Shown here: in pieces, positions 48,692 through 60,076 of the stretch
Layout: every line of letters begins with the position of its first letter
Numbering within the stretch: the stretch's first letter is position 1
DNA from: Mayamaea pseudoterrestris
Taxonomy: Eukaryota
DNA length: 64,000 nucleotides
Direction of reading: 5' to 3'
Assembly (NCBI GenBank): GCA_027923505.1
Contig: BROI01000002.1
Coordinates: 744,001 to 808,000 of the forward strand
The notes under the pieces: model-generated
Database searches by the model: none
Told to the model about the DNA's origin: nothing
The model's input: only the letters and a program-made list of their open reading frames with translations
Translations under genes and position numbers: made by a program

Positions 48692-49405
48692 ATGCGACTG
48701 CAAGTGAAAGCTCCTGGCGTAGTCATTGCAACTATTTGTACAACGCCATGTCTCGCCTTTCACTGTCCATTCACTGGAGTTTCCTTGACGAGGATACAAT
48801 ATGATCCACTATTTTCTTCATCTCCTTCCGCAGTTACCTTCGACAACGACCTACAAATCAATTCCATAGAAGAGGCATCAAACATACTTACAATATGGGA
48901 TAGCTATTTCAGCGGTAGTCAATCAGCTGGACAGGCAGTCGATGAGAATAACGATTCACTGTCAATCGACGTCAATCAAGTCGCCCAATCAGTTCTATTC
49001 TTGACTCATCAAGCAGCCATTCAACGAGTTAATGACCCCTCAAGCGGTCGCATTATGCTTGGAATTTGTGCCAGTTCGGCTTCTCAAGGAATCGAAACGC
49101 TCAAATCATGGGTGTCGACGCTCAAACTTCCGCGAGGCTTGCTGCATGGCATGGATGACGCCGGTGTTCCCTTGCAAATCGACGGAGGCGTATACATCAA
49201 GTACAATTCAGGCGGGGTCTACACTTTTGCCGACATTAAAAAGTCAGGTCGAGGGTTCGACTCGCTATGGAAGCCGGGAGATGCCATGCTCGAGAATTAC
49301 GATGGAACCTATCGAGGAGTTTACTTTCAAGTTGAAATTGGAGATGATACCTTTCGACAGTACCTTTGCCCGCTTGATCTGTTTGATGCGAACGTAAATA
49401 GTTGA
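48692..49405 (+). CDS. Hypothetical protein, probably plastid-targeted
   Basis: 237-aa ORF with signal-like N-terminus (CLA-F). Globular C-terminal part GRIMLGICA..LPRGLLHGMD..VYIKYNSG. Confidence 0.7.
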   Translation: MRLQVKAPGVVIATICTTPCLAFHCPFTGVSLTRIQYDPLFSSSPSAVTFDNDLQINSIEEASNILTIWDSYFSGSQSAGQAVDENNDSLSIDVNQVAQSVLFLTHQAAIQRVNDPSSGRIMLGICASSASQGIETLKSWVSTLKLPRGLLHGMDDAGVPLQIDGGVYIKYNSGGVYTFADIKKSGRGFDSLWKPGDAMLENYDGTYRGVYFQVEIGDDTFRQYLCPLDLFDANVNS

Positions 49406-49512
49406 ACGTAAGTTGTAAAGATTTTTTAAGCAGCTCTTCTATGTCAGTTTTATACATGCTGGTAGTTGAGAGCGCGGTGAAGCTTCATCTCAGCGACGGA
49501 GAATTTCGACGA

Positions 49513-49540
49513 GATGTCGCAGCGCAACCAAACCAATGGT
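49513..49540 (+). promoter_or_regulatory. 28-bp CCAAT-containing motif, copy 2
   Basis: Exact match to 48540-48567. It would lie 113 nt upstream of the ATG at 58715 if the retrotransposon and one TSD copy are removed. Confidence 0.55.
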
Positions 49541-49595
49541 CTCGATTAAAATCTCATCGTACCGGTACAAGTACCCAGGCTTCCCTTCTCCGCCG

Positions 49596-49896
49596 AGTCG
49601 AAACAATTAAGGTTCAGGCCCTGCCAGTGTCCGTTTGTTTCGGTTGATCCTCATGGCTGGATATCTGTTAATATCCAGTATCTGTGAATACTCAAGTTAC
49701 TTAAGCTACAGAAGCAAGCCGACGTTACAAACACGTCGGCAACGGTCCCCTTAAAGTAGCGGTAACAACTAAATCAAATCATTCTATTGCAAAGTACACG
49801 CAATCGTCTCGTTCCCCTCTTCTTACCAAGTTAGCAGACTGATCATCTCCTACTTGACCAAGTACTCAAGGTAACTCGACACAAGTTGCATTGATA
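49596..49896 (+). repeat. LTR 1 (301 bp, AGTCG...TGATA)
   Basis: Directly follows TSD CGCCG; identical to LTR 2 by eye. Confidence 0.97.
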
Positions 49897-49910
49897 GGTT
49901 ATTCGTCCCA
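49897..49910 (+). other. Putative primer-binding site GGTTATTCGTCCCA (second copy 51862-51875)
   Basis: Abuts the LTR end and begins GGTTAT, like the half-tRNA(iMet) PBS of Drosophila copia (GGTTATGGGCCCAG). Confidence 0.6.
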
Positions 49911-49965
49911 ATCACGCGCCCTACTGCCGCTACAAAATCTCGTTCTAGACCCCGAGAAAAGCATC

Positions 49966-51612
49966 ATGTCTACCGACAACAACGACACCGACACGGAGCA
50001 GTACTTCGACACTCCTCCTCCTAAACCCCGAGCTGGCTCTCCAACATCTGCTGCAGCTGATCTTGCCACGCTCATCACAGCTCTCAAGTCGATTCCATCC
50101 GACCAGCTTAAGATCCTCCTCCAAGCCGTCCAACCGACCGACGCGTCGTCGCCTGGAGACTCTCCTCCCAAGGATGAAACCTCTATTCCAACGGCCAACG
50201 AATATGTTTCCCTCATTGGTGGTTACCTCGATGCCGAGCGCAAGATTGCCTTCTGTGGAGGCAAACCGAATCTTGACTACACGCTCCCCCAAGTGCTCGA
50301 GGACGACCCGCTCGCCAAGCACATCCCCAAGACGCCAGCTTGTCACCGCGATTTGACAATGAAGCGTGCTGCTCAGGATTACGCCATTCGCATTGCTTTC
50401 AAGCCTTCCATTGGCAAGTTAGAGAAGGCGATGCCGATGTTCGCCTGGGGCGAGCTCATCCTTCGTGCGCTTGAAACGACTGGCGGCGATTCCGTCACTT
50501 ACTCGCTGTCGAGAGACAACAAGACGCGCGTTAGTGTTTGTACCAACTTTGATGTACTCACGCTCGCTCACGTTATCGCTCAAAGCAAGAAGGATGTCGC
50601 CAATTGGCGTCCAATGGACCACGAGAACAGCTCGATGGCGATCGAGTTCGTGTTGAATCACTTGAGCACGGCGATCCAACAGATTGTCGAGCCTCGCCGA
50701 AAGGAAGATGATACCTTCGCTATCTTCTTTATGCGCATCGCTCAAGCCAACGCTGATCTTTCATACGAAGCTGCCGACAAGATGAAGGCAGAGCTCCGTG
50801 CTTACAAATTGACCGACGTTTCCTACCAAGACGTTCACCATTTTGGTGCCAAGTTCCTCAACACTGAGCGCCAGCTTCACAATGGCAAACGCTGGGACCA
50901 CTCCCTTGGATTAATCTTCATTAGAGAGCTCTCCAAGTGTCCTTCGGAAGTTATGCGTGTAACGTTCATTGGCATTGGAGAACGGTACGACACTGCTCTT
51001 CGTGAAATCAATCCCCTCTCCTACGACGAGCAGCGCTCTCGCATGTTCAGTTTAAACGTTCATATCTCCCAGTTGGTTGAACGCGCTGACGATCTTTACG
51101 CTCAGATCAAAGCAGTTGATGGAGGATGGCCTCCGCTTGTCAATATTGTCGACAAGAAAGCGCCCGATATCAACTCGTTGACGAAACTCAGCCACGCCGA
51201 GCAAGCTGCTCTCATCTCAAGCGGCCAAGTTGACATCAACAATCTCGTTCAATCCAAGGTCAAAGAGCTCCGCACAAAGGACAAGAAGCAGTTGGAGGCT
51301 TACAAGAAGCGATTCGCCAAGCAGTCGCCAACTGGCGACACCAAGGCTCCAAACACGACTCCTTCTGGCGATTCCACCAAGACCGCCGAAAAGCGAGCTG
51401 AACGCCCTTTACCAGCATGGCGCACAAAGCCGCCTGCTGCCAACAATAAAGACGAAGTCAAGGAGGTTGGCAAGTACAAGTTCCAGTGGTGCGACAAGTG
51501 CTCCAAGTGGGTGTGGAATCATACGTCTGCAACGCACAAATCCAAGTCGCCCGAGGCAAGAGTCGAAACAATTAAGGTTCAGGCCCTGCCAGTGTCCGTT
51601 TGTTTCGGTTGA
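49966..51612 (+). CDS. gag: Gag copy 1; C-terminal 26 aa replaced by 17 aa read from LTR 2
   Basis: Identical translation to Gag copy 2 up to KSKSPEA, then RVETIKVQALPVSVCFG*. Confidence 0.9.
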   Translation: MSTDNNDTDTEQYFDTPPPKPRAGSPTSAAADLATLITALKSIPSDQLKILLQAVQPTDASSPGDSPPKDETSIPTANEYVSLIGGYLDAERKIAFCGGKPNLDYTLPQVLEDDPLAKHIPKTPACHRDLTMKRAAQDYAIRIAFKPSIGKLEKAMPMFAWGELILRALETTGGDSVTYSLSRDNKTRVSVCTNFDVLTLAHVIAQSKKDVANWRPMDHENSSMAIEFVLNHLSTAIQQIVEPRRKEDDTFAIFFMRIAQANADLSYEAADKMKAELRAYKLTDVSYQDVHHFGAKFLNTERQLHNGKRWDHSLGLIFIRELSKCPSEVMRVTFIGIGERYDTALREINPLSYDEQRSRMFSLNVHISQLVERADDLYAQIKAVDGGWPPLVNIVDKKAPDINSLTKLSHAEQAALISSGQVDINNLVQSKVKELRTKDKKQLEAYKKRFAKQSPTGDTKAPNTTPSGDSTKTAEKRAERPLPAWRTKPPAANNKDEVKEVGKYKFQWCDKCSKWVWNHTSATHKSKSPEARVETIKVQALPVSVCFG

Positions 51613-51861
51613 TCCTCATGGCTGGATATCTGTTAATATCCAGTATCTGTGAATACTCAAGTTACTTAAGCTACAGAAGCAAGCCGACGTTACAAACACG
51701 TCGGCAACGGTCCCCTTAAAGTAGCGGTAACAACTAAATCAAATCATTCTATTGCAAAGTACACGCAATCGTCTCGTTCCCCTCTTCTTACCAAGTTAGC
51801 AGACTGATCATCTCCTACTTGACCAAGTACTCAAGGTAACTCGACACAAGTTGCATTGATA
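51561..51861 (+). repeat. LTR 2 (internal, 301 bp)
   Basis: Same sequence as LTR 1, followed by the same PBS-like sequence. Confidence 0.97.
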
Positions 51862-51930
51862 GGTTATTCGTCCCAATCACGCGCCCTACTGCCGCTACAA
51901 AATCTCGTTCTAGACCCCGAGAAAAGCATC

Positions 51931-53604
51931 ATGTCTACCGACAACAACGACACCGACACGGAGCAGTACTTCGACACTCCTCCTCCTAAACCCCGAGCTG
52001 GCTCTCCAACATCTGCTGCAGCTGATCTTGCCACGCTCATCACAGCTCTCAAGTCGATTCCATCCGACCAGCTTAAGATCCTCCTCCAAGCCGTCCAACC
52101 GACCGACGCGTCGTCGCCTGGAGACTCTCCTCCCAAGGATGAAACCTCTATTCCAACGGCCAACGAATATGTTTCCCTCATTGGTGGTTACCTCGATGCC
52201 GAGCGCAAGATTGCCTTCTGTGGAGGCAAACCGAATCTTGACTACACGCTCCCCCAAGTGCTCGAGGACGACCCGCTCGCCAAGCACATCCCCAAGACGC
52301 CAGCTTGTCACCGCGATTTGACAATGAAGCGTGCTGCTCAGGATTACGCCATTCGCATTGCTTTCAAGCCTTCCATTGGCAAGTTAGAGAAGGCGATGCC
52401 GATGTTCGCCTGGGGCGAGCTCATCCTTCGTGCGCTTGAAACGACTGGCGGCGATTCCGTCACTTACTCGCTGTCGAGAGACAACAAGACGCGCGTTAGT
52501 GTTTGTACCAACTTTGATGTACTCACGCTCGCTCACGTTATCGCTCAAAGCAAGAAGGATGTCGCCAATTGGCGTCCAATGGACCACGAGAACAGCTCGA
52601 TGGCGATCGAGTTCGTGTTGAATCACTTGAGCACGGCGATCCAACAGATTGTCGAGCCTCGCCGAAAGGAAGATGATACCTTCGCTATCTTCTTTATGCG
52701 CATCGCTCAAGCCAACGCTGATCTTTCATACGAAGCTGCCGACAAGATGAAGGCAGAGCTCCGTGCTTACAAATTGACCGACGTTTCCTACCAAGACGTT
52801 CACCATTTTGGTGCCAAGTTCCTCAACACTGAGCGCCAGCTTCACAATGGCAAACGCTGGGACCACTCCCTTGGATTAATCTTCATTAGAGAGCTCTCCA
52901 AGTGTCCTTCGGAAGTTATGCGTGTAACGTTCATTGGCATTGGAGAACGGTACGACACTGCTCTTCGTGAAATCAATCCCCTCTCCTACGACGAGCAGCG
53001 CTCTCGCATGTTCAGTTTAAACGTTCATATCTCCCAGTTGGTTGAACGCGCTGACGATCTTTACGCTCAGATCAAAGCAGTTGATGGAGGATGGCCTCCG
53101 CTTGTCAATATTGTCGACAAGAAAGCGCCCGATATCAACTCGTTGACGAAACTCAGCCACGCCGAGCAAGCTGCTCTCATCTCAAGCGGCCAAGTTGACA
53201 TCAACAATCTCGTTCAATCCAAGGTCAAAGAGCTCCGCACAAAGGACAAGAAGCAGTTGGAGGCTTACAAGAAGCGATTCGCCAAGCAGTCGCCAACTGG
53301 CGACACCAAGGCTCCAAACACGACTCCTTCTGGCGATTCCACCAAGACCGCCGAAAAGCGAGCTGAACGCCCTTTACCAGCATGGCGCACAAAGCCGCCT
53401 GCTGCCAACAATAAAGACGAAGTCAAGGAGGTTGGCAAGTACAAGTTCCAGTGGTGCGACAAGTGCTCCAAGTGGGTGTGGAATCATACGTCTGCAACGC
53501 ACAAATCCAAGTCGCCCGAGGCAAACAACTTCATTCTTGCCGACTCCGCCAACGTGTTTGAAGAATTCACCGACTACGCTCCCTTCGCTGACAGTCAGGA
53601 ATGA
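51931..53604 (+). CDS. gag: Gag copy 2 (complete) with CCHH zinc-knuckle variant
   Basis: ORF between PBS and pol; WCDKCSKWVWNHTSATH; ends GAA TGA CTT. Confidence 0.9.
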   Translation: MSTDNNDTDTEQYFDTPPPKPRAGSPTSAAADLATLITALKSIPSDQLKILLQAVQPTDASSPGDSPPKDETSIPTANEYVSLIGGYLDAERKIAFCGGKPNLDYTLPQVLEDDPLAKHIPKTPACHRDLTMKRAAQDYAIRIAFKPSIGKLEKAMPMFAWGELILRALETTGGDSVTYSLSRDNKTRVSVCTNFDVLTLAHVIAQSKKDVANWRPMDHENSSMAIEFVLNHLSTAIQQIVEPRRKEDDTFAIFFMRIAQANADLSYEAADKMKAELRAYKLTDVSYQDVHHFGAKFLNTERQLHNGKRWDHSLGLIFIRELSKCPSEVMRVTFIGIGERYDTALREINPLSYDEQRSRMFSLNVHISQLVERADDLYAQIKAVDGGWPPLVNIVDKKAPDINSLTKLSHAEQAALISSGQVDINNLVQSKVKELRTKDKKQLEAYKKRFAKQSPTGDTKAPNTTPSGDSTKTAEKRAERPLPAWRTKPPAANNKDEVKEVGKYKFQWCDKCSKWVWNHTSATHKSKSPEANNFILADSANVFEEFTDYAPFADSQE

Positions 53605-56600
53605 CTTGAATGCGGAAGGACGCCGCCTCTTCTTCTCTTTGTTCAAGCGTTTTGTTTCAAGACTGCCTTCGCCCGGTTCATCCTCAAGCCCGTCGCCGCC
53701 ATGCTCCTCTTGGCTGCACTGAGTATGCTTCCTACCGTCCTACCGGCCGTCCTTGAATCAGTTTGCGCTTGCGCATTGAGTGGACTTGCGCTCAATCAAT
53801 GGTTCTGGTCTTCGACTCTCGCCAACGCCTCTTCGTTTGCTTGCAATGCGCTCAGTCTTTCGCGCGCTGCGCTCGCTCTTCCAACGTTTCTTCGCTGGTT
53901 TTGGTTTGAGTTACTTACGACTACGCTCGAGAGGGAGATGATGTTGCTGTGGATGACAGTTATCCTCGAAGCATTAGCTCTTTCCTATCACCTTTCTCCG
54001 AGTCGCCCCCAACCAACTAGAGACAAGCTCCGTCAAAAACAAAAACACTACGACAAACGCAAGAACTCTACTGACGAACGTCAACTTTCCGTCCAATCAA
54101 AACGTCGCATTCGCCAACAGAAACGATTGAAAAGAACGCTCCGTGTCCCACTCATCTATAGCTATCACCGTTCCTATCCAACAAGATTGCGCAGCGACGG
54201 CATCTATCGTCAAAGAGTCCATTGCCCTCGTTTCGAGACCCTTCCAGACGCCAAGACTGTTCCCATTGAAGTCATTAAGGGGTACAATGGCTTGTTTACG
54301 ACCCTCGTCGAGTCCAAGGCATGCCGATGGTTCGACAATCCCATCTCCCAATTTAATTCCCTCGTCGAGTACCCCAGCCTCATGGACTACCTTGGCGCGC
54401 TCGCTCCTCTCGAGTTTAACAACGTTACCTTCCAAGCAGACTCTACAGTCAATGACTTTGCATTCTCTCCAAGCAATGCTGCTCGATCCTCCACGTTCGA
54501 AATCATTCACGACAGCGGCGCTTCTGCAACCGTCGCCAATCACTTGGATGACTTCGTCCCTGGTACTTACCGCAAAAGCACAAAGAAGATCATTGCAAAA
54601 GGACTCGCATCTGGATTGCAAGTGGTCGGCCATGGCATAATTGACTGGACTCTTGATGGCAACGACGGCAAGCCGCTACGAGTCCGTTGCCAAGCTCTCT
54701 ACATTCCCGACAGTCCGCGCAAGTTACTGTGCCCTCAACAGTACACGCGATACCACAAGCTACACGATCGCGAGGCGAATTTAACGTTTGCTATTAATGG
54801 AGAAGGATTCTGGTACTTTGATCTACACAAACAAGGACGCCCGTCCCTTCTTCACGGCTCGCTCGATCCAGTCACCAACCTACCGACTTCTACAGCAATT
54901 GCAACTCAAGATAGCCCTGAAACACTTCATGCTGAGTTTAATGCATGTGTAACAGACGCTCGAAACGCCAACCTGTCGCCCGCTCAAAAGCTCCTTCTTC
55001 AATGGCATTTCAAGTGCGGCCACGCCAGCTTCCGCAGCATTCAAAACCTTCTACGCTCTGGTCGCCTCGCTACAAGCGATGAGATGCGCAAGCTCCATAA
55101 AGCAGCAGCCTCCTGTGAGATCCCGCGGTGCGCTGCTTGCGAATTTGGAAAGGCAAAACGTCGACCCGCGCCCGGAACGAGTCGTCAACCAACGCCTCGA
55201 GCCGATGGATCGCTCAAGCAAGGAAAGCTTCGACCAGGACAACAAGTCTCCGTTGATCACTACATCTGCAGTCAAAAGGGACGCCTCTATACGTCTCGCG
55301 GCAAAACGTCGACCGACTCAATGTTCAGCGGCGGCGCGCTCTTTGTTGACCACGCAAGTGGATACGTCTTCGTCGACCATCAAGTTGTTATGAACACTCA
55401 TGAAACTCTTCGCTCCAAGTGGAACTTTGAAAAGGTTGCAAGGGATTGCGGCGTTTCAATTGAAAGCTACTTGTCTGATAACGCTGCGTGTTTCACCAGT
55501 CACGAGTACACCGAGCATCTTTCCAAATTCAAGCAGACGACTGTCTTTGCAGGCGTCGGCGCCCATCATCAAAACGGAATAGCAGAACGAAACATTCAAA
55601 CCATTATGAATATGGCAAGAACGATGCTTATCCATGCTAACATGCACTGGACTGACGTTGATGACATGTCGCTCTGGCCGATGGCCGTCGACTACGCAGT
55701 TTACATCTTCAATCGCATGCCAAACGTCGCTACTGGCCAAGCTCCCATTGACATCTTTACTGGTACCATCTGGGCAAGTCACAAGTTCCATCACCTCCAC
55801 GTTTTTGGATCGCCCGCCTACGTTCTTGATCCTCGCATGCAAGACGGCAAGTCCATTCCTCGTTGGAAAGTGCGCTCACGCCGCGGGATCTTTGTCGGCT
55901 TCTCCAGCAAGCACTCAGCTACCGTTCCACTTGTCCTCAATCTGAATACATTAACAATCAGTCCTCAGTATCACGTTACGCATGACGATTGGTTTACTAC
56001 AGTTGACGCTCTTCCTGATTCGCCTCCCAATTTTACGGACGACAGATGGACGAGTCTCTTTGCGACAAGCAAGTACATCTATCCGTTCGACGACGATGAC
56101 CCCCTTCCTGCTCTCAATCCTGAGTGGGAGGACAACTTTGATGCCTCAGCTGCTCGCCAAGACGCTATCCATGCAGCACAGACTCCTTCTACTGCTCCAG
56201 TTTTACCTGCTCCCGCCGCTCCGCCAGCGGTTGCTCCAGTTCCTTCCAATGATTCTCCGCCCGTCACAGACGCTCCGCCTACGAATCAGAGGGAGACAAG
56301 GCCTCCTGAAATTCATTCGCCTCACGAAACTACAGAACCACAGCTTCAGAGGGAGCAGAGGGAGCAATTAGACTACATTGATGGCAATCCTTTGCGCTCG
56401 TCCGCACCTACACCGCGTGTCGCAGCCGATGTCACAGTCAATCCCAGTCCACCAAACGCATCAAACGAGTCCACGATCCTGACGACAGCTCCCACGCTCG
56501 CACAACAACCACAACAACAAGCAAGTGATCCTCCTTTACGACGCTCTGCACGTTTACGTGATCGACCACCTGAGCCAGTCATTACTCGAGCTCAGAGACT

Positions 56601-58293
56601 CCGTCATGCTCGCGACGAAATGATTGAAACCAATATGCTGTTAGCAGAGCATGCGCACGCGGAATACCCTTACTCAATTGGTTTAACGCAAGTGCTACTC
56701 GCCTCGACGAACGATCCCGACACACTCCGCTACGATGAAGCGATGCGCGCTGATGACTCTGAAGAGTTCAGGAAAGCCGCAGGAATAGAGATCAAGTCGC
56801 TCGAAGACCATGGAACATGGGTTGTCATACCAAGGACCAAGGTTCCTCAAGGAAAGCAAATCATCCCCGGCACATGGACCTTTCGCCGCAAGCGAACGCC
56901 CAGCGGTGAGCTTAAGAAACACAAAGCTCGCTTCTGCGTTCGAGGAGACCTACAGAAGGACGTATTCGAAACGTTTGCACCAGTCGTTCAATGGAGCACC
57001 GTTCGTGTCCTCATGGTATTCGCCTTGACGTTCGGCTACAAAACCAAGTGCATTGATTTCACCAACGCTTTCGTGCAAGCAGAACTAAAGGATCCAATCT
57101 ACATTCAATTCCCTCGCGGCTTTCAACACAAAGACGGTCATCAATCAAGCGATTACTGTTTAAAGTTGCTCAAGTCGTGCTACGGAACGAAGATCGCCCC
57201 AAAGCTCTTCTACGAACACTTACGCGACCGACTCGTCGAGCTCGGGTTCACTCAAAGCTTCTTCGATCCCTGTCTCTTCTACCGCAATGGACAAATCATC
57301 GCCTGTTACGTTGACGATTGCATCTGCGTCGCCCGTACCGACAAGGAGCTACAGACCATCATCGACGACCTTCGCTCCAAGTTCACGCTCACCGAAGAAG
57401 GCGATCTCAGTCAATATCTTGGCATTGATATAAAGCGCTCTGGCAAGTCTTTCACGCTCACTCAAACGGGTCTGATTGACAGTATCATTCAAGCTACTGG
57501 AATGGAGGCTGCTAACGGAGTCTTCACGCCCGCCAACGACACGCTCGGCAAGAACGCCGATTTACCTGATCATCAAGAGAGCTGGAGCTACAACTCGCTA
57601 ATCGGCAAGCTTCTTTATCTCGCTGGTAACTCGCGTCCTGATATTGCTTTCGCTGTCAATCAATGCGCAAGATTCAATCACTGTCCTAAAAAGCCACACT
57701 TTGACGCCGTTAAACGCATCGTCCGCTATCTCATCAAGACTCGTGAACAAGGACTCATCATGACGCCCGAAGGCAACCTCACGGTTGACTGTTACGTTGA
57801 TGCCGACTTTGCTGGTTTATATGGAAAGGAAGACGGTCAAGACCCAGTGTGCGCTCAATCCCGTACCGGATACCTCATTATGCTCGGTGGCTGCCCCGTC
57901 TTTTGGCAAAGCAAGCTACAAACCGAAATTGCTCTATCTACAATGGAATCCGAGTACGTTGCTCTTTCTTCAAGTCTTCGCCAAGTCATTCCTATCCAAG
58001 CAATCGTCAAGGAAATGGGAAACAAAATGAAGCAACGCATTCAAGTAAACGCGCGCTCCTACTGCACCGTTTACGAAGACAACGCAGGCTGCCTCGCGCT
58101 CGCCAATGCCCCTCATCTAACGCCTCGCTCTCGCCATTACGCTACTAAGTATCACCACTTTAAGCACCACGTAAAGCAGGGCACGATCAAAGTCGTTAAG
58201 ATTGATACCAAGGAGCAACGAGCCGATATCTTTACAAAGGCGCTGCCCCAAGTCACATTCGAGCACCTCCGCCGTCTCCTTATGGGATGGTAA
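53605..58293 (+). CDS. pol: Pol (hydrophobic/basic spacer - protease - integrase - RT - RNase H); open in the gag frame directly after the gag UGA (first ATG 53701)
   Basis: PR HDSGAS. IN WHFKCGH..CAAC, VSVDH, LSDNA, NGIAER. RT KHKARFCVRG, CIDFTNAFVQ, YVDD. RH YVDADFAG, ESEY, EDN, ADIFTK. Confidence 0.97.
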   Translation, partial: LECGRTPPLLLFVQAFCFKTAFARFILKPVAAMLLLAALSMLPTVLPAVLESVCACALSGLALNQWFWSSTLANASSFACNALSLSRAALALPTFLRWFWFELLTTTLEREMMLLWMTVILEALALSYHLSPSRPQPTRDKLRQKQKHYDKRKNSTDERQLSVQSKRRIRQQKRLKRTLRVPLIYSYHRSYPTRLRSDGIYRQRVHCPRFETLPDAKTVPIEVIKGYNGLFTTLVESKACRWFDNPISQFNSLVEYPSLMDYLGALAPLEFNNVTFQADSTVNDFAFSPSNAARSSTFEIIHDSGASATVANHLDDFVPGTYRKSTKKIIAKGLASGLQVVGHGIIDWTLDGNDGKPLRVRCQALYIPDSPRKLLCPQQYTRYHKLHDREANLTFAINGEGFWYFDLHKQGRPSLLHGSLDPVTNLPTSTAIATQDSPETLHAEFNACVTDARNANLSPAQKLLLQWHFKCGHASFRSIQNLLRSGRLATSDEMRKLHKAAASCEIPRCAACEFGKAKRRPAPGTSRQPTPRADGSLKQGKLRPGQQVSVDHYICSQKGRLYTSRGKTSTDSMFSGGALFVDHASGYVFVDHQVVMNTHETLRSKWNFEKVARDCGVSIESYLSDNAACFTSHEYTEHLSKFKQTTVFAGVGAHHQNGIAERNIQTIMNMARTMLIHANMHWTDVDDMSLWPMAVDYAVYIFNRMPNVATGQAPIDIFTGTIWASHKFHHLHVFGSPAYVLDPRMQDGKSIPRWKVRSRRGIFVGFSSKHSATVPLVLNLNTLTISPQYHVTHDDWFTTVDALPDSPPNFTDDRWTSLFATSKYIYPFDDDDPLPALNPEWEDNFDASAARQDAIHAAQTPSTAPVLPAPAAPPAVAPVPSNDSPPVTDAPPTNQRETRPPEIHSPHETTEPQLQREQREQLDYIDGNPLRSSAPTPRVAADVTVNPSPPNASNESTILTTAPTLAQQPQQQASDPPLRRSARLRDRPPEPVITRAQRLRHARDEMIETNMLLAEHAHAEYPYSIGLTQVLLASTNDPDTLRYDEAMRADDSEEFRKAAGIEIKSLEDHGTWVVIPRTKVPQGKQIIPGTWTFRRKRTPSGELKKHKARFCVRGDLQKDVFETFAPVVQWSTVRVLMVFALTFGYKTKCIDFTNAFVQAELKDPIYIQFPRGFQHKDGHQSSDYCLKLLKSCYGTKIAPKLFYEHLRDRLVELGFTQSFFDPCLFYRNGQIIACYVDDCICVARTDKELQTIIDDLRSKFTLTEEGDLSQYLGIDIKRSGKSFTLTQTGLIDSIIQATGMEAANGVFTPANDTLGKNADLPDHQESWSYNSLIGKLLYLAGNSRPDIAFAVNQCARFNHCPKKPHFDAVKRIVRYLIKTREQGLIMTPEGNLTVDCYVDADFAGLYGKEDGQDPVCAQSRTGYLIMLGGCPVFWQSKLQTEIALSTMESEYVALSSSLRQVIPIQAIVKEMGNKMKQRIQVNARSYCTVYEDNAGCLALANAPHLTPRSRHYATKYHHFKHHVKQGTIKVVKIDTKEQRADIFTKALPQVTFEHLRRLLMGW

Positions 58294-58341
58294 GTTGCTC
58301 ATCTTCTCTGTTATTTGTCTCTATGTCTATAACATCGATCC

Positions 58342-58350
58342 AAGAGGGAG
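58342..58350 (+). other. Polypurine tract AAGAGGGAG
   Basis: Immediately 5' of LTR 3. Confidence 0.85.
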
Positions 58351-58651
58351 AGTCGAAACAATTAAGGTTCAGGCCCTGCCAGTGTCCGTTTGTTTCGGTT
58401 GATCCTCATGGCTGGATATCTGTTAATATCCAGTATCTGTGAATACTCAAGTTACTTAAGCTACAAAAGCAAGCCGACGTTACAAACACGTCGGCAACGG
58501 TCCCCTTAAAGTAGCGGTAACAACTAAATCAAATCATTCTATTGCAAAGTACACGCAATCGTCTCGTTCCCCTCTTCTTACCAAGTTAGCAGACTGATCA
58601 TCTCCTACTTGACCAAGTACTCAAGGTAACTCGACACAAGTTGCATTGATA
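58351..58651 (+). repeat. LTR 3 (301 bp)
   Basis: Differs from LTR 1/2 at one position seen (A at 58466 vs G at 49711 and 51676); followed by TSD CGCCG. Confidence 0.97.
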
Positions 58652-58714
58652 CGCCGCTGCTGCGTGCCATTTCCATATCGGTAGTCAACTGCAGAAAGGA
58701 TTTCAGACATCATC

Positions 58715-60076
58715 ATGTTCAAGTCGAATACAGCTATGCATATATGCCTATTTCTATTCGCTGCTTTGTTTTGCAGCAGTGACGCTTTCGTGGTAAACTC
58801 TTTCAGTCACGCCGTTCCAGCAAGAAACAGTGTCGACTCGAGGAAACAGCATGATGCACAATCTTTGCTGTATGCCGCCAATGAACAATCATCCGAAGCC
58901 ATCAAGCAAAACATTGAAGTCATGCGACTAGAAGCGAAGCGACGATTGGAGGCGCTCCATGTACGCATGGAGGAGTTGAAGCAGCATCAAGTTGAAACGC
59001 AAGAGAAGACTAGTGAGCAAACTATAACAGTGCGCGACAAGGACGGCTCGGCTACTGCAGAATTGACAGCTACAAGCAATGCAGCAATAGTAGACACTGT
59101 ACGGACGCAAAACGCCGACAATAACTATTCACTCGATAGCATGGAAGGGGATTGGGTGGAGTCAACCATTGCATCATCACAATCAGCAACAGCTGCTGCT
59201 ACCTCACCAGTAGTCGCAGTGCCGCCATATCTAAATACTCGCATTGACACGGATCTCTTGACAGACACGCGATGGAAGGTGGCCTACAATATTGGCCGCG
59301 AAGCTGGAACATGGATGCCAAAGGAGTGGGGCAGGTCGGGAGACCGATTGATATTTCAAATTGTCATGGACTTTACCAATGAACCGTCGTTTGACCGGGA
59401 CGACTTTTTCCAAGGCGTTGCTGGTGCCAAAGTACTCAATGTCGTGGAAGCGTGGGTGCTTCCAAGTGGTGTGGGTCGAAATAGTCATGGCAGGCAAGCC
59501 ATGCGCGTCAAAGCAACGGGCGCCTACAAGATACTACCGGGCCTTGGGCCGTGCGGCACCAACATTGTGCGCTTCTACGTGGAACTTGAGGATCAAGTCA
59601 GTGCAACACCCGATTCGGACGTTTCCTGTCCTCAAGGACGAGTGTATGCCACCTGCGGGTACTTTCCAAAGCGCTCCAAACAAAATGGAGTTGCCTCGTG
59701 GAAGGAACGAATGGATGATGAGCATCATGCGTACGTCGTTCGATACGAGCAACTGCAGCGACAGATTGAAGCCGATGGCCGGCTCTTTAGCTTGGAAAAG
59801 ATAAAGCTCATGAAGGAATCCTACATGGTGAGACAAGAATTGGAGCAAGCAACCATGCGTCTGCAGGAGGCTCGTCAGCGAGACCCCGAAAGGTCGCAGC
59901 TCCGCATGACGCGCGATGGCCGCGTCGGATTGACCAAAGAGGGTGGTGTTTGTCGCAAGGTCCAAAAGGGAGTGGCAATGGAGTATCATATACTGGGACG
60001 CATTGAGCTGGCTTGCATTGACAAGCATGAGGCGCATGACGACTACCAAGAATTGGTTCATCAGCTGCATCCCTGA
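58715..60076 (+). CDS. Plastid-targeted hypothetical protein with coiled coils
   Basis: 453-aa ORF; signal peptide plus SDA-FVV; globular region RWKVAYNIGREAGTWMPKEWGRSGDRL. Confidence 0.8.
   Translation: MFKSNTAMHICLFLFAALFCSSDAFVVNSFSHAVPARNSVDSRKQHDAQSLLYAANEQSSEAIKQNIEVMRLEAKRRLEALHVRMEELKQHQVETQEKTSEQTITVRDKDGSATAELTATSNAAIVDTVRTQNADNNYSLDSMEGDWVESTIASSQSATAAATSPVVAVPPYLNTRIDTDLLTDTRWKVAYNIGREAGTWMPKEWGRSGDRLIFQIVMDFTNEPSFDRDDFFQGVAGAKVLNVVEAWVLPSGVGRNSHGRQAMRVKATGAYKILPGLGPCGTNIVRFYVELEDQVSATPDSDVSCPQGRVYATCGYFPKRSKQNGVASWKERMDDEHHAYVVRYEQLQRQIEADGRLFSLEKIKLMKESYMVRQELEQATMRLQEARQRDPERSQLRMTRDGRVGLTKEGGVCRKVQKGVAMEYHILGRIELACIDKHEAHDDYQELVHQLHP

Follow-up and report, generated by a model that had tools for sequence, protein, structure and literature searches.

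An in-frame UGA between gag and pol of a Ty1/copia-type retrotransposon from the diatom Mayamaea pseudoterrestris: a candidate site of programmed stop codon readthrough

The stretch of DNA analysed here comprises 64,000 nucleotides of the diatom Mayamaea pseudoterrestris (GenBank assembly GCA_027923505.1, contig BROI01000002.1, positions 744,001 to 808,000 of the forward strand; in the following referred to as the window, with positions counted from its first letter) and harbors on its forward strand a Ty1/copia-type long terminal repeat (LTR) retrotransposon of the composite layout LTR-gag'-LTR-gag-pol-LTR with CGCC at both outer sides (see Table 1). The affiliation to the Copia elements is given by the direct LTRs with target-site duplication, the RVT_2 domain and the order protease (PR), integrase (IN), reverse transcriptase (RT) and RNase H (RH) in the second open reading frame (ORF2). 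The DSGAS and YVDD motifs are visible in the ORF2 translation (the read-through product, i.e. the translation continued from gag across its stop codon, has DSGA at residue 862), and gag matched 0 Pfam families. According to the genome report (PMC9724779), the M. pseudoterrestris assembly has a size of 30.6 Mb and contains 19% repeats, chiefly of the Ty1-Copia type. The 3' LTR differs from the 5' copies at a single site (99.67% identity over 302 bp), which agrees with the young age proposed for the element in a preliminary description of this locus; the element has recently been active. The LTR termini, GAGTCG (49595-49600) and TTGATA (49891-49896), are of the form GA...TA and not of the usual form TG...CA. 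The sequence GGTTATTCGTCCC... following the outer 5' LTR (49897-49917) likely represents the primer-binding site, and the tract AAGAGGGA (58340-58349) the polypurine tract.

Gag terminates in the sequence CAG GAA TGA CTT GAA with the TGA at positions 53602-53604. The stop-to-stop ORFs 51823-53604 and 53605-58293 lie in one frame, with this TGA as the sole interruption of the entire region 51823-58293, and from the ATG at 51931 to the last sense codon the frame counts 2,120 codons plus the stop. The gag end, the position of the pol ATG at 53701 and the single gag-pol frame of about 2,100 codons broken by one UGA are thus as reported in the preliminary description. Between the gag stop and the protease region (53605-54600), this frame contains 0 stops versus 9.7 expected (0 of 5000 dinucleotide shuffles were stop-free), and the other two forward frames contain 6 and 12 stops, respectively; the region is open far beyond chance, and ORF2 therefore truly reaches up towards the gag stop. 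The 32 in-frame, stop-free codons directly behind the stop (53605-53700), to which the preliminary description had pointed, are present but not significant when taken alone (P 0.39 at the shuffled rate of 9.7 stops per 332 codons), and the sharing of a frame by gag and ORF2 has a prior of 1 in 3. As both features are weak by themselves, the case for readthrough must rest on other evidence.

Table 1. Features of the composite Ty1/copia-type element in the window.
Feature	Position	Strand	Basis or remark
Left target-site duplication CGCC	49591..49594	+	directly before LTR copy 1; recurs directly after the 3' LTR
LTR copy 1, outer 5' LTR of the composite, 302 bp	49595..49896	+	100% identity to 51560-51861, 99.67% to 58350-58651
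Leader and gag truncated after ...SKSPEA	49897..51559	+	with LTR copy 1, first unit of the 1,965-bp tandem duplication
5' LTR of the full-length element, 302 bp	51560..51861	+	LTR comparison
gag ORF, 557 codons, ATG 51931	51931..53601	+	translation; C-terminal WCDKCSKWVWNHTSATH motif common to relatives
GAATGACT, gag stop TGA 53602-53604, flanked by AA (5') and CT (3')	53599..53606	+	sequence
32 sense codons between stop and first in-frame ATG	53605..53700	+	coding for the linker's first hydrophobic window
First in-frame ATG of ORF2, context GCCGCCATGC	53701..53703	+	sequence; start codon if Pol were initiated independently
ORF2/pol, 1,562 codons plus stop	53605..58293	+	hydrophobic and basic linker, then PR, IN, RT, RNase H
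Hydrophobic (transmembrane-like) linker windows, then Lys/Arg-rich stretch, motif HRSYPTRLR	53629..53793	+	hydropathy; same order in uninterrupted relatives
Protease-like beta-barrel containing DSGAS, Pol_BBD PF22936	54505..54744	+	ORF2 residues 301-380, E 0.0014, below curated cut-off
Integrase region	54985..55953	+	PF13976 gag_pre-integrs, residues 461-516 (below cut-off); PF25597 SH3_retrovirus, residues 728-783 (above)
Copia-type reverse transcriptase RVT_2 PF07727	56839..57534	+	ORF2 residues 1079-1310, E 8.8e-40
3' LTR, 302 bp, purine-rich tract AAGAGGGA just before	58350..58651	+	one mismatch to the 5' copies
Right target-site duplication CGCC	58652..58655	+	directly after the 3' LTR

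A search of the shorter proteins (<1,166 aa) with the junction region (residues 400-880 of the read-through product) yielded 5 matches (P0003 to P0007), all of them hypothetical proteins of M. pseudoterrestris encoded on five contigs; their identity to the window protein (aligned parts) amounted to 91.9-100% in 4 of the 5 gene models and to 89% for P0006 as well as for the +1-frame tail of P0007. None of these five gag gene models passes the stop in frame. A word-based search with the same region among the proteins of 1,166-3,712 aa gave no match, and a sense codon at the TGA site was found in no protein among 5.8 billion clusters (both size ranges searched). The protein P0003, encoded on another contig, deviates from the Gag of the window by 4 residue differences and a one-residue gap (aligned parts) and possesses the same end, ...FADSQE, the depositors' gene model terminating at the TGA under the standard code. 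In P0007, which derives from a frameshifted copy, the junction is read in the +1 frame as ...VRNDLNAEGRR, a reading that demands identical nucleotides including the TGA. P0004, P0005 and P0006 stop short of the TGA site and are uninformative on it.

Nine public sequencing runs, none of them recorded as RNA, include part of 52900-54400, and four of these (X1, X2, X6, X7) were compared as contigs over 51870-58340; the runs may stem from the organism of the window itself and are hence not independent of it. The sole contig of run X1 that covers the stop (53407-53811, word depth 611.6) differs from the window at 53499, 53535, 53719 and 53745, the TGA and the surrounding 183 nt (53536-53718) being identical. 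The corresponding contig of run X2 (depth 273.4) carries 3 differences, of which two are among the listed rows (53499 and 53535) and one is not, and none of the contigs listed for X6 and X7 spans the stop. The comparison with other genomic copies, which had been suggested in the preliminary description as a check, thus revealed the TGA to be kept in close kin, i.e. in at least two further genomic copies (P0003, P0007) and in the dominant contig of X1: it is a trait of the family and not a private nonsense mutation. Apart from this, X1 and X2 contain over 51997-52906 a second gag variant of lower word depth that is ~13% diverged, shows several small indels and has a stretch of 105 nt exchanged for other sequence; the family of the window is therefore accompanied by a diverged sub-family.

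The substitutions between the window copy and the run contigs (dominant variant) were classed for the 40 best-supported of 336 differences. In the gag/ORF2 frame, 37 of the 40 listed differences were synonymous versus ~28% expected from the transition/transversion mix (binomial P about 9e-18). This held also for the compositionally odd stretch behind the stop (53719-54279), in which 5/5 differences were synonymous as compared with 1/5 and 0/5 in the other frames (P 0.0016). The sole change within 53605-53700, C>T at 53694 as deduced from the frameshifted P0007, is likewise synonymous in the gag/ORF2 frame. In consequence of the synonymous excess on both sides of the TGA, the TGA-bearing lineages must keep gag and the post-stop ORF functional; gag, linker and pol have been kept under purifying selection, a pattern scarcely compatible with a pol that is not translated.

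Distant relatives were retrieved by a HMMER scan of 1.84 billion representatives with gag, linker and protease as query (the stop being read as W), which resulted in 526 relatives at E<=1e-3. Nine fetched relatives of 1,779-2,369 aa (P0015, P0021, P0028, P0045, P0048, P0054, P0058, P0112, P0145) formed one continuous ORF reaching from gag to RNase H; contigs were looked up for five of them and had lengths of 6.5-8.8 kb (ENA, Logan, JGI). Seven of the nine (P0021, P0028, P0045, P0058, P0112, P0145, P0048) exhibit the same succession of a gag motif or gag homology, a spacer, hydrophobic helices, a Lys/Arg-rich stretch (with a HRSYPxRLR-like motif in several relatives) and the protease. The gag motif has the form WCxKCxxWxxxHxxxxH; P0145 is without the exact motif but homologous to gag. 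P0015 leads from the motif to the protease almost directly, and P0054 lay outside the motif scoring. In the read-through product of the window element, the motif starts at residue 509, followed by the stop at 559, the first hydrophobic window (Kyte-Doolittle above 1.6) at 568-586 (53629-53685) and the first Met of ORF2 at 592. This hydrophobic window begins 60 residues after the motif start, compared with 52-77 residues in 8 of the 10 relatives scored; the exceptions are P0045 and P0078, with 116 and 107 residues past the motif. On the hydropathy profiles, the 32 codons behind the stop match in position a predicted helix that is translated in the relatives. As the putative helix lies between the UGA and the Met, with no ATG upstream, it would be translatable only through gag.

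The position at which gag-only forms end was compared for 84 of the 150 listed relatives, namely those whose best match reaches the gag motif. Fewer than 10 residues past the motif were counted in 3 relatives, 10-59 residues in 32 (26 in the window element) and 94 or more in 49, of which 19 have 400 or more; the pile-up at 10-59 residues is not producible by contig ends alone. An alignment of 19 proteins shows a Trp directly before the hydrophobic stretch of the continuing relatives; this Trp, or a position no more than six residues away from it, is also the end point of several gag-only forms. Some of the gag-only forms are encoded on contigs of 5.8-6.7 kb, and their ends are therefore real stops, not truncations. 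According to these protein comparisons, a stop or frame shift at the gag/linker boundary recurs in the lineage. The argument of the preliminary description against a random nonsense mutation is thereby strengthened, the stop being present in other copies, purifying selection acting on both sides of it and the boundary recurring in distant relatives.

The combination of hydrophobic segment, Lys/Arg stretch and HRSYPxRLR-like motif (window 53629-54200) is common to P0012, P0021, P0022, P0028, P0058, P0078, P0124 and P0145. The linker (ORF2 residues about 9-200) gave no Pfam match and no usable match in the ESM Atlas; to our knowledge, no function of a hydrophobic linker in a Copia polyprotein has been described. 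A canonical CCHC zinc knuckle (CxxCxxxGHxxxxC; columns ~560-590 of alignment A1) precedes the WCxKC...H...H motif in most relatives; the window element, its closest relative P0008 and a few others are devoid of it and retain the second motif alone. A scan of metagenome contigs produced the single locus L001, which was rejected as the tblastn match was a spurious hydrophobic one with no gag or pol nearby. Viral contigs contained no match to the window junction or to the gag-only relatives P0014 and P0042, and genome contigs searched with P0014 gave no match.

The arrangement of gag and pol in one phase with a single UGA between them has been published for another Ty1/copia element, Tca2 (pCal) of Candida albicans, the Pol of which was concluded to come from gag-UGA-pol RNA, so that a bypass of the stop is required (Forbes et al. 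2007, PMC2194720). The rarity of such a layout among Ty1/copia elements was thus overstated in the preliminary description; it is already known from Ty1/copia (Tca2) and Ty3/gypsy, and the window element adds an unsurprising variant to it. Both elements share the superfamily and the one-frame gag-UGA-pol structure. They differ in the host (fungus versus diatom), in the candidate pseudoknot 3' of the Tca2 stop (the folds at the stop of the window element gave no structure by a method without pseudoknots) and in the hydrophobic linker, which is not reported for Tca2 in the part of the source available. The fission-yeast Ty3/gypsy elements Tosmo1-3, Tcry1 and Tj1 possess a strictly conserved GAA-TGA-CT octamer at the gag stop, which was interpreted as programmed readthrough on a short context, and the stop of Tj1 is cited as essential for transposition (bioRxiv 10.1101/2022.12.06.519325). 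The window element likewise has an in-frame TGA between Gag and Pol within the identical octamer. In contrast to it, those elements are of the order PR-RT-IN and belong to another kingdom, and the function has been tested for Tj1; because of the different superfamily and kingdom, the shared octamer has to be regarded as convergence or chance and not as common descent.

As in the gammaretrovirus murine leukaemia virus (MuLV), the single leaky stop of which gives a minor Gag-Pol fusion, gag and pol of the window element lie in one frame. In MuLV, the gag stop is UAG, and reading through it requires a pseudoknot located 8 nt downstream; the window element has UGA, no structure was found in its folds, and the Retroviridae are a different family with a different order of pol. 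Gammaretroviral gag-pol readthrough was named as a precedent in the fission-yeast study (bioRxiv 10.1101/2022.12.06.519325). Among diatom elements, the CoDi Copia elements of Phaeodactylum and Thalassiosira were described as seven clades with the domain order PR-IN-RT-RH and young LTR pairs, three of the CoDi families lacking the TG/CA termini (Maumus et al. 2009, PMC2806351). The window element resembles them by general features only, i.e. the diatom host, the domain order, the young LTRs and the existence of families without TG/CA; its host is Mayamaea, not Phaeodactylum or Thalassiosira, and the available part of the CoDi study (PMC2806351) discusses no mechanism.

Based on these comparisons, programmed UGA readthrough on a short sequence context is considered the best reading of the gag-pol junction, with a probability of roughly 0.6. 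The element would descend from an ancestral single gag-pol frame that is broken by one UGA between the C-terminus of Gag and the hydrophobic and basic linker preceding the protease. On the full-length RNA, the majority of ribosomes would terminate at the UGA and yield Gag, whereas a small fraction would decode it with a near-cognate tRNA, aided by AA-UGA-CU, and produce a Gag-linker-Pol fusion; the outcome would be a high Gag:Pol ratio, with Pol carried into the particles via its Gag part. UGA is the leakiest stop, and AA upstream as well as C or CU downstream promote readthrough (work cited in bioRxiv 10.1101/2022.12.06.519325). The sequence GAA-TGA-CTT has this context (UGA, C/CU at +4/+5, A at -1/-2), and the leaky UGA-C emphasized in the preliminary description is thus in line with the published contexts.

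Several observations weigh against readthrough and are considered here together with the alternative explanations. The folds of 53596-53720 (125 nt) and 53605-53680 (76 nt) were no stabler than shuffles (z +1.12 and +0.69), pseudoknots being outside the method. At the Tca2 junction, the sequence alone drove no readthrough in a Saccharomyces cerevisiae reporter, and a minor promoter was located there (PMC2194720); a gag-UGA-pol layout therefore need not work by simple context-driven readthrough. Pol might instead be produced independently of Gag: through reinitiation, internal entry or a shorter transcript from an internal promoter such as that of Tca2, translation would begin at ATG 53701 or at a near-cognate codon close before it, and the shared frame would be a coincidence or an ancestral relic. 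The ATG lies just 97 nt past the stop and is in a context that makes independent initiation conceivable (GCCGCCATGC, with the purine G at -3, after a GCCGCC run), and neither the 32 open codons (0.39) nor the shared frame (1/3) is significant alone. Moreover, none of the 40 listed differences falls within 53605-53700, so that every selection datum behind the stop lies from 53719 on, downstream of this ATG, and the relative P0125 (1,018 aa) begins with a Met heading a hydrophobic stretch. However, such a start would drop the first hydrophobic helix (53629-53685), which is position-matched to the first helix of the uninterrupted relatives; these make gag and linker as a single protein, and a Pol without Gag requires another route into the particles. 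Reinitiation after an ORF of 557 codons is, in addition, inefficient in eukaryotes without special signals. The Pol of Tca2 was nonetheless concluded to derive from gag-UGA-pol RNA (PMC2194720). On balance, a Pol made independently of Gag is judged unlikely.

The codon-usage score remains near zero from 53605 to about 54150, i.e. for ~180 codons behind the stop, a low value that would also suit a removal of the stop by splicing in a fraction of the transcripts, Gag-Pol then being made from spliced and Gag from unspliced RNA. Splicing controls the gag/pol output in some Copia elements, and 169 GT..AG combinations across the stop would leave the frame open. Yet none of the 15 GT sites within 300 nt upstream of the stop resembles a strong donor of the GTAAGT type, and no joint across the stop occurred in the four runs compared (contigs, none recorded as RNA). 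The region past the stop stays open, changes synonymously only (5/5), as would not be expected of an intron, and is homologous to the translated linker of the relatives; a spliced Gag-Pol message is hence regarded as distinctly improbable. All copies seen are close kin, so that shared descent alone would retain the TGA and only the synonymous excess argues for function. It is therefore conceivable, though quite improbable, that the family or a sub-lineage is defective, with the TGA as an inherited nonsense mutation and its spread depending on the Pol of other elements in trans or on segmental duplication. The frameshift of P0007 and the rearranged, composite state of the window copy would agree with such a defect. 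A never-translated pol would, however, drift neutrally, whereas the synonymous differences (37/40) include those in pol; the LTRs differ at 1 site with ORFs otherwise intact, no protein among the 5.8 billion clusters has a sense codon at the TGA site, and gag terminates at the corresponding boundary in numerous distant relatives. A standard decoding of UGA as a sense codon, either as selenocysteine by means of a SECIS element or in a variant nuclear code, has a practically negligible likelihood: diatoms do possess selenoproteins, but Rfam detected no SECIS or other family over 49400-58800 at E<=1, and the gene model of P0003 ends at the TGA under the standard code. A CRISPR-repeat match returned by Rfam for the same region was rejected as chance.

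If readthrough is confirmed, the junction would provide a natural, compact readthrough signal for diatoms, usable as a reporter or as a tool for tuning expression, and would join Tca2 as the second Ty1/copia element in which the bypass of a gag stop can be compared. Searches of one literature collection on Copia readthrough and on stop-codon readthrough in diatoms found no paper on readthrough in a diatom retroelement. Of greater value than the stop itself may be the conserved hydrophobic linker and the way in which the lineage divides: the relatives are either uninterrupted or carry a gag stop at one conserved boundary just before the linker, which makes them a ready comparative set for estimating the frequency of changes between single-ORF and recoded Copia elements. 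A farther-reaching view, which is doubtful at present, would be that in this mostly undescribed protist Copia lineage of 526 relatives the gag stop acts as an old, repeatedly kept switch between a soluble capsid and a Gag fusion with a conserved transmembrane-like, basic linker before the protease. In Mayamaea, the switch would operate via structure-independent readthrough on AA-UGA-CU, convergent with the fission-yeast Ty3 elements; the window element might then be the first case of a stramenopile Copia element that depends on readthrough, which would add a membrane anchor to Gag-Pol.

The composite structure of the element, which the preliminary description did not mention, results from a tandem duplication: the region 49595-51559 is a 100% identical, 1,965-bp copy of 51560-53524 (LTR, leader and gag to ...SKSPEA), and the joint between gag' and LTR coincides exactly with the LTR terminus. 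This arrangement fits one copy having integrated within gag of a sister copy, with LTR-LTR recombination thereafter; alternatively, the duplication may be an artefact of the long-read assembly. P0004 departs from gag at the same ...SKSPEA, the point where the first gag copy of the window meets the LTR. P0004 and P0005, although encoded on different contigs, have the same short tail ...AGMQQKVVSLCR, which is not present in any of the six frames of the window; this form may be a recurring offshoot of the family, either rearranged or non-autonomous.

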